A DNA stretch of 64,000 nt from an uncultured bacterium (GTDB lineage: Bacteria; Patescibacteriota; Minisyncoccia; UBA6257; 2-01-FULL-56-20): the NCBI GenBank assembly GCA_963807165.1, contig CAWDZM010000001.1, positions 198,306-262,305 of the forward strand, in the 5' to 3' direction. Of this stretch, positions 4,247-63,552 are shown piece after piece. The notes beneath the pieces are model-generated. The model was not told the origin of the DNA. It searched no databases and worked only from the letters and a program-made list of their open reading frames with translations. Position 1 is the stretch's first letter, and each line of letters begins with the position of its first letter. Both the position numbers and the translations under genes were made by a program.

Positions 4247-4969
4247 TTATAGGTTGGCTGAAAGGAGCTTTCGACGTGCGAGGCCAGCGGCAAAGACAAG
4301 CCCCGTTCCGAGCAGCATCAGAGACGAAGGTTCGGGCGTCGGTGCGACGGGGGTTAGGTCGATGGTAAGGCTTGGATCGATGGCATCTCCGCTTGTGGGC
4401 AATGCCGACAATGTGATGGTATAGGTGTCGGCGGCATTGGGGTTAAAGCTGAGCGGTGTCGCTAGAAACGCGAAGCCGAGATTCTCAGCATTCTGAAATC
4501 CATCGTCGCCCGGCTGCATCGCGCAACCCGAGCAGACAATTCCAGAACCGTTGGCCTGACCGTTGTCCGGCAACAGCGTTGGATTGAAGGAGACTACCGC
4601 GTTTGTTGTGTCGTTTGCAATGATCAGGTTGTAGGTGTACGCGCCCAAAGGGTCGCTCCCGGTATTCACGGAGAATGCGAAATCCCAATTGGCGAGCGTG
4701 CCAGCGTTTGGCGAATAGTAGTAGTCGTTCGTCGTTGGCGTGATCGGCCCCACAAAGCGGGTAATCGCTTCGAGCCCGAGTTGCAGAGTGCTTCCATCCG
4801 AATTTGTCGCAGTGAGTACATCCCAGCCGGCGTTGACGTTTCCGGTTCCAAAGTAGACCCCGGGGTTAGACAGACTGGAGTTGAAGGTCTCATCCGCGTG
4901 TGCAGTTGCCAATGTGGCTCCTCCCATCGCGGCCAAGGCCAAGAACAACATAAACTTTTTACTTTTCAA
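4247..4969 (-). CDS. Secreted PEP-CTERM domain protein
   Basis: Signal peptide. C-terminus is TPEPSS + hydrophobic helix + RRK. Confidence 0.7.
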   Translation of the reverse strand: MKSKKFMLFLALAAMGGATLATAHADETFNSSLSNPGVYFGTGNVNAGWDVLTATNSDGSTLQLGLEAITRFVGPITPTTNDYYYSPNAGTLANWDFAFSVNTGSDPLGAYTYNLIIANDTTNAVVSFNPTLLPDNGQANGSGIVCSGCAMQPGDDGFQNAENLGFAFLATPLSFNPNAADTYTITLSALPTSGDAIDPSLTIDLTPVAPTPEPSSLMLLGTGLVFAAGLARRKLLSANL

Positions 4970-5049: not shown

Positions 5050-5120
5050 GCTGCGGGACTTGGATTCGAACCAAGATTAACGGATTCAGAGTCCGCGTGC
5101 CTACCATTAGCAGATCCCGC
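5050..5120 (-). tRNA. tRNA-Gln (anticodon CTG)
   Basis: Cloverleaf folded by hand: 7-bp acceptor stem, T-loop TTCGAAT, anticodon loop CTCTGAA. CCA is not encoded. Confidence 0.8.
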
Positions 5121-5123
5121 AAT

Positions 5124-5780
5124 TCAATATTCGCGAAAGGCAATGAGTTTTCTCAATTTCTCGACTTCCGCTTTTCTTCTTATCCGTATTGCATTATTAC
5201 GTACTTCGGGATGAAATTCAAGCCGCCGCAAAATGTCTTCGACGATATTCAATAATGATTGATTCTTATTTGAAAACGAGAAATTATAGGTGCAAGTTGG
5301 TAGGTGAATATTGAGGGAACCCTCTGCCTCGAATAATCCGCGAAGAAATCTTATGGAAAATGATTCGTTCTCGTTTATCCAATCCGGAAGAGTATACGGC
5401 ACATCTTTTCTATTACCGCTCGCTATCCCCAGCCGCTGGGAAATATATTTTTGGTATAAGCTGATCCGAAGCGCATTTACATCTTTTAGTTTGGTAACCG
5501 TAGGTTCGTTGCCAAATAAAATATGAGTTAATCTTGTGTACCGGCGGATAAATTCTGGGTTATTGCTATTGCCCACGATTATTAACCGCTCCGTTCGCGG
5601 GCATGCTTCAATATTTCCATCTCCAAGCACCACCCCGATATATTCAGCAAGATCACCGTTACGGGGAAGATCCGCATAGCGAACGCGGTGGTCGTCGCGC
5701 CATTTTTTAAAATTATCAATTTTTCTCGCCTTCATAGTGCGAGATATTTTTTCTGCGCGAGAAAATTTGTGATTTGGCAT
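5124..5780 (-). CDS. LAGLIDADG homing endonuclease, double-motif. Its stop codon lies 3 nt before the 5' end of tRNA-Gln.
   Basis: Motifs YIGVVLGDGNI and FLRGLFEAEGSL. Confidence 0.8.
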   Translation of the reverse strand: MPNHKFSRAEKISRTMKARKIDNFKKWRDDHRVRYADLPRNGDLAEYIGVVLGDGNIEACPRTERLIIVGNSNNPEFIRRYTRLTHILFGNEPTVTKLKDVNALRISLYQKYISQRLGIASGNRKDVPYTLPDWINENESFSIRFLRGLFEAEGSLNIHLPTCTYNFSFSNKNQSLLNIVEDILRRLEFHPEVRNNAIRIRRKAEVEKLRKLIAFREY

Positions 5781-10820: not shown

Positions 10821-11417
10821 CTACAGGTTGTGTTGTATGAGGCGCGGTTGGATGCTGAAGCGCCGAAGGCCGAAGGCGAAAGCCAGCAGGCCGGAACCGA
10901 GTAAAAGTAATGATGATGGTTCCGGAACTGGCGGCGTTGCTATTTCTGTCAGTGTAAATGTCCCAGGCGTCTGGACGAAGGTGCTCTCGAGAATGGTATC
11001 GCCAGCAAAGATGTTTATCTGAACGCCGTCGGTGGCGAGAAAGAGAACTCCAGCCGAATCGAGTTCTTCTCCCCCAGATCCAGGAAAAGAGAACTTGTTA
11101 TCAAAGAAACAATTTCCTCCGGCTGGGCACAATACTGCCCCGGGGAAATATCCATCTGCCGGGCCCGCGTTGTTGCTGGTCGGATTGAGCGAACCGGTTG
11201 TCCCCGTCGTTAGAAAAAGTGGATCGCCATCAACTACAAGCACCGTGCCGTCGGTGGCCTGATATTGGCCATCGCCAAGAGGTACAGCGGTAAGAGTGCC
11301 TGTCAGAATGGGCGTTTCGTCTGGTGCCGTAAAGGTGAATGTGAAGCTGTCAGCGACAGCCGCACGAGATGCGATCCCGAGAACTGCGATCGCGAGAAGT
11401 GCAGGAATTTTTTTCAT
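10821..11417 (-). CDS. Secreted PEP-CTERM domain protein
   Basis: Signal peptide. C-terminus is VPEPSS + hydrophobic helix + RR. Confidence 0.7.
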   Translation of the reverse strand: MKKIPALLAIAVLGIASRAAVADSFTFTFTAPDETPILTGTLTAVPLGDGQYQATDGTVLVVDGDPLFLTTGTTGSLNPTSNNAGPADGYFPGAVLCPAGGNCFFDNKFSFPGSGGEELDSAGVLFLATDGVQINIFAGDTILESTFVQTPGTFTLTEIATPPVPEPSSLLLLGSGLLAFAFGLRRFSIQPRLIQHNL

Positions 11418-13235: not shown

Positions 13236-14021
13236 ATGGCAAAACGTTGGACTCACAGCGAGGAGCTATCTTACGGTGATCAATTGCGGAAGTTATATCT
13301 ATTGGAAAATAGAACCATTTCTGATATCGGTTTGATATTAAATATATCGCCGAGTGCGGTATACCATCGGCTGATAAGACTAAAAATTCCGGTTGTGCGA
13401 GAGAAAAAAGCTCATTATTTAAATCGTCGATCGGATATTATTATCCCAACGCACCATTCCAACACTCTCGCAGAAATTTTTGGCATCATGTTGGGCGATG
13501 GGAAATTATCTCATTACCAGACTATGGTCACGCTGGGGAATAAGGAGGAAGTATACGCCAAGTATGTCGCCGAACTGCTCATTAAAATTTTTGGGGTTCA
13601 TCCAAAAATAATTACCGACCCTCATAAAGGTTATCGAACGGTTTATTTAGGATCAACGGAAATAGCAGCGTGGTTGGTAAGCGAAGGATTGGTATATAAT
13701 AAAGTTGCGTCACAAGTTGATGTTCCTCTGTGGATACTGGATAAAGAGCAATATATGAAACGATTCGTTCGTGGATTTTTTGATACCGACGAATCGATCT
13801 ATAAATTGAAATATGGCGCACAATTATCTTTTACCAATTATTCCGTCCCGTTGCTTATATCTTTACAATGGCTACTAAGACGGTTAGGATATAGAGTGTC
13901 CGAAATAAGCGGACATCGATTTTATCTTACCAAACAAGGCGAGATAGAAAGATTTTTTAAAGAGATCGGCCCGTGCAACCCAAAACACGTCAAGCGATTT
14001 AATCTCTTTATTAATTCTTAA
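13236..14021 (+). CDS. LAGLIDADG homing endonuclease, double-motif, with an N-terminal HTH. Its stop codon lies 11 nt before tRNA-Tyr.
   Basis: Motifs IFGIMLGDGKL and FVRGFFDTDESI. Paralogous to 5124..5780. Confidence 0.8.
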   Translation: MAKRWTHSEELSYGDQLRKLYLLENRTISDIGLILNISPSAVYHRLIRLKIPVVREKKAHYLNRRSDIIIPTHHSNTLAEIFGIMLGDGKLSHYQTMVTLGNKEEVYAKYVAELLIKIFGVHPKIITDPHKGYRTVYLGSTEIAAWLVSEGLVYNKVASQVDVPLWILDKEQYMKRFVRGFFDTDESIYKLKYGAQLSFTNYSVPLLISLQWLLRRLGYRVSEISGHRFYLTKQGEIERFFKEIGPCNPKHVKRFNLFINS

Positions 14022-14032
14022 TATAAGCTCAT

Positions 14033-14116
14033 GCGTCGGTGGCAGAGCGGTCAAATGCTCGAGACTGTAAATCTCGCGCCCTATGGGCTACGCAGGTTCG
14101 AATCCTGCCCGGCGCA
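14033..14116 (+). tRNA. tRNA-Tyr (anticodon GTA), long variable arm
   Basis: Cloverleaf folded by hand. Anticodon loop CTGTAAA, T-loop TTCGAAT. CCA is not encoded. Confidence 0.85.
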
Positions 14117-14135
14117 CACATAGAAAAGAAAAAAC

Positions 14136-56858: not shown

Positions 56859-56909
56859 TGGAAATGATTATAACAGATTGTTTTGGAAGAACAAGGGCTG
56901 CCTCTGTTG

Positions 56910-56990
56910 TGCGCGGGAGAGGATTCGAACCTCCACGCCTTTCGGCACACGCACCTCAAGCGTGCTCGGCTACCATTACGACACCCGCGC
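56910..56990 (-). tRNA. tRNA-Leu (anticodon GAG), long variable arm
   Basis: Cloverleaf folded by hand. Anticodon loop TTGAGGT. CCA is not encoded. Confidence 0.8.
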
Positions 56991-56991
56991 G

Positions 56992-57675
56992 TTATATTGT
57001 CAGCTTCTTATTTATTACCGCCAACGCATCTTCGATCTTTTTGCGCTTTCGGGATAAACAAACCACCTCGGGATTATAATACATCTTTGGTAATAATTTC
57101 AATGACTCAGCCTTCGCATATTTTATTTCATACATGGGAGCCTTCCCCGTCTTTGTAATATGACCCTTTATCGCTAATCTCCGAAGTATTCCCTCCCGTA
57201 TCCATACGATATGTTTTTCGCTGGCAGACATAAAAACCGTGTAAAACATATAGCTTGATCGCCAGCGGGGGTCCCAATATGAGTAGAACGTTCCGTCACC
57301 GTCGAAATGGCCACGAAGGAAATCGAAGAAATATTCGGGTGGAATATCTATACTCCCGATTATTTTCGATTTTTGCGGCATAATGCCGATGCTATTAAGA
57401 AAATTGCAAAATGCGACATCGCCAACCTGAAGATTAAAGTATTTTTTCTCTCTATTCGATCCGCTGCTTTTCATTCCAATTTTGTTCGTAATACCCAAGC
57501 ACCCCATAAAATTTTTCATCTGCTCTTCATCTTTTGAAGTAAAATTTATCATTTTGCGATTGGAGTATATGCATCCATCCGTCACTAAAAGCCCGATTGC
57601 GTAGGCAAATTCGGGCGACCATCGTATTGCGATCTTATGTTGCGGATGCATACCCGACCCTACCACACCGCACAT
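56992..57675 (-). CDS. LAGLIDADG homing endonuclease, double-motif. Its stop codon lies 1 nt before the 5' end of tRNA-Leu.
   Basis: Motifs AIGLLVTDGCI and FLRGHFDGDGTF. Confidence 0.75.
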   Translation of the reverse strand: MCGVVGSGMHPQHKIAIRWSPEFAYAIGLLVTDGCIYSNRKMINFTSKDEEQMKNFMGCLGITNKIGMKSSGSNREKKYFNLQVGDVAFCNFLNSIGIMPQKSKIIGSIDIPPEYFFDFLRGHFDGDGTFYSYWDPRWRSSYMFYTVFMSASEKHIVWIREGILRRLAIKGHITKTGKAPMYEIKYAKAESLKLLPKMYYNPEVVCLSRKRKKIEDALAVINKKLTI

Positions 57676-58940: not shown

Positions 58941-59079
58941 AGTAGTATTCTATCATATTTCTGTAAAGAGCTTTTTAGTTGTCCCAATTACCTCCCTCGC
59001 TTTCGCCTGCGATCGATTCGCTGGCCAAAGAGAAGAAAGTTCGACATATATAGAACCGAAGTTTTATATATTTAGTTTA

Positions 59080-60626
<1,547 letters not shown>

Positions 60627-60802
60627 GATAAAAAGATATCGCCCAAAGTCTCAAAAACTTTGAACGTTGATCCTAATGTTATTGTTGCAACATTTGATTA
60701 CTTCTTAACGTTGCCAAAAAGAATAAATTGGGACAACTAAAAAACTCTCTCTTTTTTCCTTACCATTAAATTGTGAAGGGACAGCTCGATACAACGAGGT
60801 CT

Positions 60803-61233: not shown

Positions 61234-61476
61234 ATGAAATCAACAATCCATCCGAAATATTTCCCTCACGCCGCAGTCATCTGCGCGTGCGGCAACACGT
61301 TTACCACCGGCGCCACTCAGGAAGAGATCCGCGTTGAAATTTGCGCACAGTGCCATCCGTTCTATACCGGCGAAGAAAAGCTCATCGACACCGCAGGACG
61401 CGTAGAGAAGTTCAAATCACGCCGTGCCGCGAAGGTTGAACCGAAGGCAAAGAAGATCCGCCCGAAGAAGCAATAA
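61234..61476 (+). CDS. rpmE: 50S ribosomal protein L31 (Zn-ribbon type)
   Basis: C-x-C ... C-x2-H zinc ribbon. Full-length L31 homology. Confidence 0.85.
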
Positions 61477-61943
61477 AAATACCCACCGCTATTTCGCTCC
61501 AGCGTAAGAACGCCCACTCGCTCAACAGCAGTGGGTATTTTTATTACTTCCGTGCGGGATAATATCTCCTTCACTTTTGTCACAGTAATATCAAGATCCT
61601 CGGTCTTATCGATAAAGTCATCCATGCCGATCGCTTTCGCGAGATCATTGCGCGGCACTGATGTTTGAAACCATGGATCTTTGAGATTACTAAGGAACGC
61701 GATCTTGATATCCTTGGTCTCCGGATCCTGCTTGATCTGAAGCGCCGCATCGGTGCCCGAAACGCCCGGCATGTGGATGTCCATCAAGATAAGATCGGGA
61801 TGCATCTTCTTTGCCACATCCACCGCTTCGACCGCACTCCCGGCAGCCGCCGTATCAAAGCCGGACGCATTCAACTTAATCGACATGATCTCACGAAGAT
61901 CCTGCTCATCATCAACAACAAGGATCAGCGGTTTTTCTCTCAT
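61362..61943 (-). CDS. Single-domain response regulator (CheY-like). The native end is probably ~61530 (TAATAA in the +1 frame). The ORF as given runs antisense through rpmE because of a probable 1-nt insertion.
   Basis: The first 129 aa are a complete receiver domain paralogous to 61940..62329. Deleting one A in gaag exposes a tandem stop. Confidence 0.65.
61512..61545. terminator. Compound hairpin region between the convergent rpmE and response-regulator genes (cccact...agtggg + tattttt)
   Basis: Inverted repeats flanked by A/T runs on both strands. Confidence 0.4.
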
Positions 61944-62329
61944 GATAAAAATGCTTTTATCTTTCCGCTCAGCGTGTTCAAATCTTCGGTCTTTCGTAAA
62001 TACCCCTGAGCACCAAAATCTTGCGAGAGTTTATGATTCAATTTCTGTATTTCAAGTTGGGGATCACCAAGATTGCTAAGAAACACTACTTTAATATCCT
62101 TCGTCTCAGGATCTTCGCGCAACTTCAATAATGCGGTCGGACCATCCATCACCGGCATATTAACATCCATAAGGATCAGGTTGGGCTTGAGTGCCTTTGC
62201 CCTTTCAACCCCCTGCTCTCCGTTATCCGCGGTCTCCACGCGAAAACCCTCCGCCGTCAGCTTTACGCTGAAGATCTCGCGGAACGCGGGCTCGTCATCA
62301 ACAATCAGAATGAGGGATGATTGTTCCAT
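61940..62329 (-). CDS. Single-domain response regulator (CheY-like), tandem paralog
   Basis: 129-aa receiver. Shares [18 protein letters not shown] with its neighbour. Confidence 0.75.
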   Translation of the reverse strand: MEQSSLILIVDDEPAFREIFSVKLTAEGFRVETADNGEQGVERAKALKPNLILMDVNMPVMDGPTALLKLREDPETKDIKVVFLSNLGDPQLEIQKLNHKLSQDFGAQGYLRKTEDLNTLSGKIKAFLS

Positions 62330-62375
62330 ACTTTTATGATACCATAGTGATTGAAAATATAACCGATTCTACGAC

Positions 62376-63113
62376 ATGACCACCAACAAGATCATTATAG
62401 AAATACGCGCGGGCGCGGGCGGCGACGAAGCATCCATCTTCGCCGGGGATTTGGCACGCATGTATCAGCGCTATGCCGCAAAGCGCGGCTGGGTTTTTTC
62501 CATTTTGGATTCCAGCGAGAACAATCAGGGGTATAAAAGTTTGACCGCAGAAGTGCATGGCGAAGGATGCTACGAAGCGTTAAAGCATGAATCCGGCGTC
62601 CATCGCGTGCAACGCATTCCGAAGACGGAAAAGGCGGGACGCGTGCACACCTCCACGGCTTCGGTCGCCATTTTGCCGATCGTCGAGGCGCGCGAGGTGA
62701 ATATCTCACCGAACGACCTCGAAGTAACGTTCTCACGCGCCGGTGGGCCGGGAGGACAGAACGTCAATAAAGTGGAAACTGCAGTACGGATATTGCACCG
62801 GCCCACCGGCATCGTCGTCGCCTCACGCGAGGAGCGCTCACAATATGCCAACCGGGAGAAGGCGATGGATGTTCTCCGCGCCAAGCTTTACGAGCTCGAA
62901 CAGATCCGCGCCGTCGGCAATATCGCCCAGGACCGCCGCGACCAGATCGGCTCCGCCGACCGTTCCGAAAAAATCCGTACCTATAACTTTCCCGACGATC
63001 GCATCACCGATCACCGTATTGGCAAAAAGTGGCACAACATCGAAAAGATCTTGGAGGGTGAATTCGATCCAATCATAAAAGCGTTCAGTGAACTTCAGAA
63101 ACCGCAAAATTAA
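62376..63113 (+). CDS. prfA: Peptide chain release factor 1-like protein lacking the N-terminal domain 1
   Basis: PxT-type tripeptide (PKT) and GGQ motif (GPGGQNVNK). Only 245 aa, with no upstream room for domain 1. Confidence 0.65.
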
Positions 63114-63552
63114 GGATCTCTTTTCCGTCATCGGTGAAAAGAAAACGTCCTTTTATCTTTTTTCCTGCGAGCACGAATGGCACCCAATGCGAATCATCAA
63201 CCCACATTGATTCAAACGGCAGCCTCCCGACAGTAAACCATTCCGGCCGCATCTCTTCGGACTCCGAAGGCTCACCGGTCCAATCCATCGCAATAAAAAT
63301 ATGGCACATATTATCCCAATCGGGGGTGTTTTGAAAATGGAATTCGAGTGTCCCCGCTTCCTTTAAATCATCAGGCGCAAGGTCCACACCGATCTCTTCT
63401 TTTATTTCACGCACCGTGGCGATCTTTACATCCTCGCCCTCTTTTAATTTTCCGCCAAAACCATTCCACTTACCCACGCCGAAACCACGCTTTTTCATCC
63501 CAAGCAAAACCTTTCCGTCCTTTATTAAGAAGCAAAGATTTGTTTGCTTCAT
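63085..63552 (-). CDS. NUDIX hydrolase (MutT-like)
   Basis: Nudix box [23 protein letters not shown]. Confidence 0.75.

Follow-up and report, generated by a model that had tools for sequence, protein, structure and literature searches.

A class I release factor of the RF1 type without domain 1, shared by a subclade of Paceibacteria

The window analysed here, a single stretch of 64,000 nucleotides (64 kb), carries murC, murG, ftsW, secDF, comEC, trmD, rpsB and scpAB along with many open reading frames (ORFs) without a family, a gene content typical of a small-genome bacterium. A 16S rRNA gene occupies 59074–60631 (minus strand), and neither 23S nor 5S was detected anywhere in the 64-kb window; thus, the rRNA genes appear to be unlinked. 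The subject of this report is a short release-factor gene. Its closest RF1 relatives occur in metagenome-assembled genomes (MAGs) labelled Paceibacterota, Minisyncoccia, Patescibacteria, Jorgensenbacteria and Liptonbacteria, and an identical protein is recorded on a contig of 726,381 bp. The gene, its motifs and its neighbours are as follows.

61234–61476, plus strand: rpmE, for ribosomal protein L31, conserved as the gene ahead of prfA (Pfam and synteny)
61362–61943, minus strand: second receiver-only response regulator, probably of 132 aa, reading 193 aa in the window through an indel (Pfam)
61940–62329, minus strand: receiver-only response regulator that starts at 62329 and diverges from prfA (Pfam)
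62352–62354, plus strand: in-frame TGA, 7 codons 5' of the ATG, which closes the frame (sequence reading)
62376–63113, plus strand: short prfA, an RF1 with domains 2, 3 and 4 only (Pfam, NCBIfam and structure matches)
62412–62432, plus strand: GAGGDEA, residues 13–19, the tip of helix α5, where the first base of the stop codon is read (the same in all 26 aligned family members)
62619–62627, plus strand: PKT, residues 82–84, the RF1-type PxT 'tripeptide anticodon', followed by GRVHTS (sequence)
62751–62759, plus strand: GGQ catalytic motif, residues 126–128 (sequence; invariant in the 26-member alignment)
63085–63552, minus strand: convergent gene for a NUDIX hydrolase, which shares the final 29 nt of prfA (Pfam)

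As read from the ORF list and the sequence, the short prfA runs from an ATG to a TAA and encodes 245 aa. The initial annotation had it starting directly at domain 2, and the first residues are indeed the first strand of that domain, followed by the helix-α5 tip. Its remark that there is no room upstream also holds, because the TGA at 62352–62354 is in frame and only 46 nt separate the gene from its neighbour. None of the seven codons between this TGA and the ATG is ATG, GTG or TTG, and the open frame, taken from the equivalent in contig L001, spans at most 252 codons. The neighbour itself had been described as a convergent gene ending at 62329; this needs correction, as the minus-strand gene at 61940–62329 starts there and is therefore divergent, and the actual convergent neighbour is the NUDIX ORF at 63085–63552.

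Gene order places the short gene in a conserved setting. Across Paceibacteria, with few exceptions and whether prfA is full-length or truncated, rpmE lies directly 5' of prfA on the same strand, as it does in several non-CPR (cyanobacterial) loci. Among the truncated relatives the two genes are separated by 122 nt (L006) or 42 nt (L011), and in L012 by 22 nt. In the window and in L003, two response-regulator genes on the opposite strand are inserted between rpmE and prfA; a similar pair occurs at L010, and none at L006, L011 and L012, where rpmE abuts prfA. The second of these genes (61362–61943, minus strand) reads 193 aa in the window and 132 aa in L001, a near-identical Logan contig, owing to an indel near 61545–61555, which may be an indel error or a difference between strains. 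The 61 additional residues are read antisense to the 3' end of rpmE and do not look like coding sequence.

Profile matches delimit what the short protein contains. Pfam PCRF (PF03462, E 3e-43) aligns with residues 4–97 and covers only positions 100–194 of its 194, and Pfam RF-1 (PF00472, E 5e-38) aligns in full with residues 107–214. The NCBIfam prfA models align over positions 104–341 of 347 and 112–351 of 361, and from these starting points it follows that about 100 N-terminal residues, that is domain 1, are absent. The elements of codon recognition and catalysis are in place: PKT at residues 82–84 and GGQ at 126–128 can be read directly, as had been stated at the outset, and RVHTS follows at residues 89–93. 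Across an alignment of 26 family members, G13–A19, Q79, P82, T84, R89–S93 and G123–R138 are invariant, and the middle residue of the PxT tripeptide varies (K/R/A/S/E/N) between the fixed P82 and T84. The residue after GGQ (region 62751–62790) is Asn in the short RF1; His is usual at this position.

Scored against NCBIfam models of the RF1, RF2 and PrfH families, a comparison the initial annotation had recommended, the short protein matches prfA best (360.6 bits with NF001859 and 354.1 bits with TIGR00019), followed by prfB (237 bits) and prfH (82.1 bits). This ranking, together with the PxT tripeptide, bears out the RF1 specificity that had been proposed, as far as sequence can indicate it. 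The protein stays below both prfA equivalog cut-offs (400 bits for NF001859 and 423.25 bits for TIGR00019), a shortfall due entirely to the missing N-terminal domain, and well below that of prfH (166.65 bits, TIGR03072). Two further identities were rejected. RF2 (PrfB) is contradicted by PKT in place of SPF and by a prfB score of 237 against 360 bits for prfA. ArfB is contradicted by a match to NF006718 that is confined to residues 105–139 (53 bits against a cut-off of 100) and by the presence of domains 2 and 4: ArfB and ICT1-type proteins share a GGQNVNKV-type motif with the short RF1, but consist of a GGQ domain and a basic tail that do not read codons, whereas the short RF1 has full domains 2 and 4.

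The resemblance to PrfH needs more care. PrfH acts together with RtcB2 to rescue and repair ribosomes. Like the short RF1, PrfH (RFH, TIGR03072) is a class I release factor without domain 1 and of similar length, a paralogue of the housekeeping factors; absence of domain 1 is common to both and thus not diagnostic by itself. The 'anticodon' loop of PrfH differs from that of the short RF1, the gene for PrfH neighbours RtcB, and PrfH occurs alongside RF1 and RF2. Of the PrfH-type likeness that had been suggested, only the three-domain layout without domain 1 stands, and every other feature of PrfH is missing. The earlier observation that no RtcB partner lies nearby is upheld: a Pfam scan of 45 window ORFs, the neighbours included, gave no RtcB. 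Together, these comparisons support the assignment of ORF 62376–63113, by its sequence features, to the class I release factors of RF1 type, without domain 1 and not to PrfH.

Comparison with canonical RF1 of known structure points in the same direction. Domains 2–4 of T. maritima (1RQ0), T. thermophilus (4V63) and E. coli (2B3T_B) RF1 are 47–56% identical to the short RF1, with 56% identity to the T. maritima core (residues 85–321 of 1RQ0) and 47% to the T. thermophilus core. RF2 chains score far lower than RF1, and the PrfH structure 9mor_A matches at only E 5e-17. An AlphaFold2 model built from the 26-sequence alignment, of moderate confidence (pLDDT 68, pTM 0.67), superposes on closed RF1 (2b3t_B with TMq 0.78, 1zbt with 0.76 and 1rq0 with 0.75–0.76), which indicates that domains 2, 3 and 4 are intact. 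The short protein shares with canonical RF1 the PxT tripeptide, GGQ, the GGDEA tip, RVHTS, the upstream genomic partner rpmE and, presumably, the role at UAA and UAG. It differs in that all of domain 1 (about 85–120 residues) is gone, in having N rather than H after GGQ, and in the net charge of the core, which is about +5 where non-CPR RF1 has about −3. Over core residues 5–237 this charge is about +4 to +5 in CPR whether domain 1 is present or not, and about −3 in the 42 non-CPR sequences. As domain 1 carries a net charge of −8 to −10, a basic core from which the acidic domain has been lost makes the short RF1 distinctly basic, and this basic charge is possibly a compensating feature.

The truncation is widely shared. 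The best 120 matches in a collection of 5.8 billion proteins, at 80–100% identity, measure 213–254 aa, nearly all of them 239–250 aa; they represent >100 protein clusters, and the assemblies behind them, from NCBI, JGI, ENA and Logan, are independent and include single contigs of 0.73–0.90 Mb. The N terminus MTTNKII.E.RAG is conserved from residue one in the alignment of 26 family members, and of 118 family members, 110 begin <10 residues ahead of the core. Against L003 (chromosome OY970354.1, 93% identical) dN is 0.060, dS 0.937 and dN/dS 0.064, and against L004 dN/dS is 0.09, ratios that indicate that the short prfA is under strong purifying selection. A remnant of domain 1 was sought in the window and the 10-kb flanks of 10 truncated loci by tblastn with 66 N-domains, and none was found; a hidden Markov model of the same 66 N-domains gave nothing significant on six-frame ORFs of the window and the 10 truncated loci, and tblastn with the E. 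coli RF1 N-domain recovered no domain-1-like sequence from the 64-kb window. The possibility raised earlier that domain 1 is encoded upstream is thus contradicted by the closed frame, the conserved N terminus and the lack of domain 1 in any frame.

To place the short gene among its relatives, one genome per GTDB species was scanned, the best 80 loci were taken and the ORF was re-derived in each. The ORFs fall into the following length classes, with the number of residues that precede the IEIRAG core.

Window and L003–L011: ORF of 239–249 aa, 10–15 residues before the core
L012: ORF of 267 aa, 33 residues before the core
L023 and L025: ORFs of 270 and 292 aa, 31 and 59 residues before the core
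Most other Paceibacteria: ORFs of 312–341 aa, mostly 81–91 residues before the core, and up to 101–110 in L017 and L026
Non-CPR bacteria: ORFs of about 352–380 aa, 112–141 and mostly 116–122 residues before the core

A 'stepwise erosion' passing through the ~85-residue N-domains of Paceibacteria was considered and rejected, since T. maritima RF1 (342 aa, 1RQ0) is equally long. Its core starts at residue 85, so that the class with 84–91 residues represents a complete, compact domain 1.

In a neighbour-joining tree built on 235 core columns of RF1, the window protein and L003–L011 form one clade nested within Paceibacteria (CPR) RF1, with the 267-aa L012 as its sister and the full-length L014 (360 aa) next. 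The single truncated clade in this tree goes back to one inherited loss. As judged from these sequences, complete loss of domain 1 marks out a single monophyletic subclade of Paceibacteria, with MAGs labelled Jorgensenbacteria and Liptonbacteria among its members, and the truncation is inherited throughout the clade and not peculiar to the window's genome. The nesting in the tree and the conserved rpmE–prfA slot together identify the short gene as the orthologous prfA. We infer that the 245-aa factor is likely the sole RF1 of its genome, a status made likely by its rpmE–prfA position, its nesting in Paceibacteria RF1 and strong purifying selection.

Stop-codon usage, which the initial annotation had proposed to examine, fits this role. 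The 68 non-overlapping ORFs of the window end in TAA (40), TAG (16) and TGA (12), and the use of all three stops indicates the standard code. With 16 of 68 ORFs ending in UAG, RF1 activity is needed; UGA is also a stop, so RF2 is needed as well and its gene would lie outside the window. No second release factor was found in the 64-kb window by tblastn with the short RF1, E. coli RF1, its N-domain and E. coli RF2, nor in the flanks of L003–L012, up to 10 kb per side where the contig allows. Searched with E. coli RF2, the window and 82 loci returned only RF1 genes, and E. coli PrmC as query detected no prmC in the window or the truncated loci. The genome-wide search for full-length prfA, prfB and prmC suggested earlier was thus carried through for the 64-kb window and the relatives' flanks, and none of the three was found there. 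A DNA pattern (F-D-x3-RRHTSF...GGQNVNK) retrieved at least 120 RF2 loci from metagenomes (L086–L205), from other phyla, and these have full-size N termini wherever they are complete, the short ones being cut by contig edges or frameshifted (for example, L157). GGQN is common in RF2 of contigs resembling Bacteroidota, Firmicutes and Actinobacteria. Since it is common in other phyla, this variant is not CPR-specific and the retrieved RF2 loci are not assignable to CPR.

Several other explanations for the short gene can be weighed against these data. It is barely credible that the gene is an artefact (a pseudogene, a mis-assembly or an ORF with the wrong start) whose domain 1 really lies upstream. 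Broken RF1 genes do exist in low-coverage assemblies, as at L083 and L084, but here a TGA stands in frame 7 codons 5' of the start, a divergent gene begins 46 nt away, domain 1 appears in no frame, and the same architecture recurs in >100 clusters from independent assemblies that include single-contig genomes of 0.73–0.90 Mb. The clusters, the conserved N terminus and a dN/dS of 0.06 together exclude a pseudogene, a mis-assembly and a misplaced start. An accessory PrfH-like or rescue paralogue, with a full-length prfA elsewhere performing housekeeping termination, is a less far-fetched idea, given that PrfH shares the three-domain architecture, that 9mor_A matches at E 5e-17 and that the ~0.73-Mb genome was read within the 64-kb window only. 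We nevertheless consider it unlikely: the prfH score is 82 bits against a cut-off of 166.65 and a prfA score of 360, PxT is present and the PrfH motif is not, no RtcB occurs among the scanned window ORFs, and the gene occupies the ancestral rpmE–prfA slot and nests among orthologous RF1s. Additionally, no second RF1 locus appears in the truncated-copy genomes among the 80 best GTDB matches listed, and duplicated translation factors are probably uncommon in genomes as small as those of this clade (~0.7–0.9 Mb).

Two further possibilities would retain the gene as RF1 and change how it works. If the gene were split, domain 1 could be supplied in trans by a separate small ORF, and a profile of 23 CPR N-domains searched against the 5.8-billion-protein collection did return 35 short PCRF-N proteins of 45–187 aa, in a search of limited sensitivity that listed no full-length RF1. 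However, these proteins are 50–77% identical to the N-domains of lineages with a complete RF1, they lie on short contigs of which none was traced to a contig with a truncated RF1, the two inspected (L083 and L084) are prfA genes interrupted by unrelated sequence, and no such ORF occurs in the window or in the flanks of the 10 truncated loci. This low-sensitivity search, in which any full-length RF1 was missing, thus gave only broken-contig fragments and no stand-alone domain-1 gene, and we regard a split gene as very unlikely. At L083 (629–892) and L084 (56–415), prfA breaks off a little past the core start and runs into unrelated sequence of different composition; both are probably chimeric low-coverage assemblies, and contigs of this kind give rise to spurious 'domain-1-only' proteins in databases. 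We give as little weight to a change in specificity, by which the short factor would be omnipotent or read another signal and termination in the clade would be altered. The tripeptide PxT does vary at its middle position (K/R/A/S/E/N), and no RF2 was found in the window or the locus sequences searched, but GGDEA, Q79, P82, T84 and RVHTS are all invariant and all three stops occur at ordinary frequencies, as expected with a separate RF2. Variation in the middle of PxT is not unusual, as this residue is A in E. coli and V in T. maritima and T. thermophilus.

We thus favour the reading that the gene is a functional, orthologous prfA of Paceibacteria (Parcubacteria; CPR/Patescibacteria), that the ancestor of the subclade lost the whole of domain 1, and that the product is most likely an ordinary UAA/UAG factor; comparative sequence evidence makes this reading quite probable. 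In other bacteria, domain 1 consists of three helices, touches the L11/GTPase-associated region and recruits RF3. In the short factor, the unit of domains 2 and 4 would enter the A site, where the stop codon would be read by the GGDEA helix tip, the PxT loop and the RVHTS segment, and domain 3 would place GGQ in the peptidyl-transferase centre for peptide release. The domain-1 contacts to the L11/GTPase-associated region or to RF3 would not form. Lacking the three-helix domain, the factor would have to bind and leave the ribosome alone, without RF3.

An engineered precedent makes such a factor plausible. RF1ΔN of E. coli (Mora, Zavialov, Ehrenberg & Buckingham 2003, Mol Microbiol 50:1467) retains domains 2–4 only, with effectively the same deletion boundary. 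As Mora et al. 2003 is summarized in PMC1586002, removal of the N-terminal domain leaves the codon specificity of E. coli RF1 unchanged. The same summary in PMC1586002 describes the domain as dispensable for release in vitro, with truncated RF1 working in vivo, and as required only for the interaction with RF3, in which it stimulates nucleotide exchange. RF1ΔN is, however, a laboratory construct in an RF3-bearing organism, whereas the short RF1 is natural, clade-wide and selectively maintained. E. coli RF2 from which the N-terminal domain has been removed is reported to work poorly. RF3 itself is non-essential, and many lineages of bacteria have lost it (PMC1586002, PMC4342817). Many RF3-less bacteria keep domain 1, so the truncation is not accounted for by RF3 loss by itself. 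According to a comment in PMC1586002, E. coli RF1 is inactive on ribosomes without L11, which implies that the domain-1/L11 region can matter for RF1.

Reduction of domain 1 extends beyond the window's clade. Further short CPR forms were seen among 50%-identity representatives: P0123 (232 aa), P0125 (242 aa), P0130 (269 aa), P0234 (256 aa) and P0242 (235 aa). Candidatus Amesbacteria GW2011_GWA2_47_11b is the source of P0234, which is annotated as its RF1 (KKU58406.1, UniRef A0A0G1SLA7) and has been public since the groundwater genomes of 2015. Its best 120 relatives (P0312–P0430) comprise 49 with a stub of ~25 residues (MDY[FEQ]EWKK...), 21 with 57–67 residues before the core and 35 with 70–77. 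The N-terminal MDY... is kept throughout this Amesbacteria-type series, which points to internal deletions. Like the short RF1, the factor of Amesbacteria (Microgenomates) is a CPR RF1 whose domain 1 has been cut down; unlike it, the Amesbacteria protein keeps a stub of ~25 residues (MDYFEWKKLQENK...), has intermediates of ~57–77 residues and is only ~50% identical. On this comparison, the Amesbacteria reduction is independent of that in the window's clade, and reduction of domain 1 of RF1 is a recurrent feature of CPR of which the window's clade is the extreme case. L012 and L023 carry W-x-x-W stubs similar to those of Amesbacteria, yet sit in different parts of the tree. Three other proteins (P0121, P0122 and P0133; 293–481 aa) contain internal tandem duplications of RF1 segments that look like assembly artefacts and not like real fusions.

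A broader reading can be put forward tentatively, although we see it as somewhat more doubtful than probable. The short protein may be the sole RF1 of the whole Paceibacteria subclade, and domain 1 may be in the course of being shed repeatedly and stepwise across CPR, with complete loss in the subclade, 31–59 residues left in L012, L023 and L025, and stubs of ~25 residues and intermediates of 57–77 in Amesbacteria. If true, CPR ribosomes would terminate at UAA and UAG without the RF1–L11/stalk–RF3 pathway, in a minimal cycle of termination that evolved together with their own reduction, and the basic core would make up for the lost binding surface.

To our knowledge, the four-domain architecture of RF1 and RF2 has been treated as universal in bacteria, and we know of no evidence that domain 1 is dispensable other than the engineered E. 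coli mutant. In the literature covered, which is an incomplete selection, there was no description of a natural housekeeping RF1 without domain 1 or of the trend in CPR. A natural housekeeping RF1 of this kind, selected across a lineage, would mean that a minimal factor is viable over evolutionary time, and its clade-wide occurrence suggests that these bacteria dispense with the usual RF1–RF3/ribosomal-stalk contact in termination. Given the engineered precedent, a termination specialist may find this only moderately surprising. Termination factors would join the list of slimmed-down CPR translation components. The short RF1s could be useful as a natural minimal RF1 and as ready-made proteins for dissecting the roles of domain 1, L11 and RF3 in termination speed and recycling. 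The truncation also affects annotation. NCBI gives six of the short RF1s (P0062, P0093, P0110, P0114, P0274 and P0325) no other name than 'PCRF domain-containing protein', since their scores fall short of the prfA equivalog cut-off, and automated surveys may score RF1 as missing in genomes that have the short form.

Two features elsewhere in the window deserve mention. A PEP-CTERM sorting motif stands at the end of two minus-strand ORFs, at 4247–4969 and 10821–11417; this signal is usually paired with an exosortase, and none was noticed among the window ORFs scanned. All three tRNA genes of the window (Gln-CTG, Tyr-GTA and Leu-GAG) are preceded on the same strand, at a distance of 1–11 nt, by a free-standing LAGLIDADG_3 ORF of 218–261 aa (regions 5050–5780, minus strand; 13236–14117, plus strand; and 56909–57675, minus strand). 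The three ORFs are ~25% identical to each other and thus are not recent copies, and their pairing with every tRNA gene of the window looks non-random.
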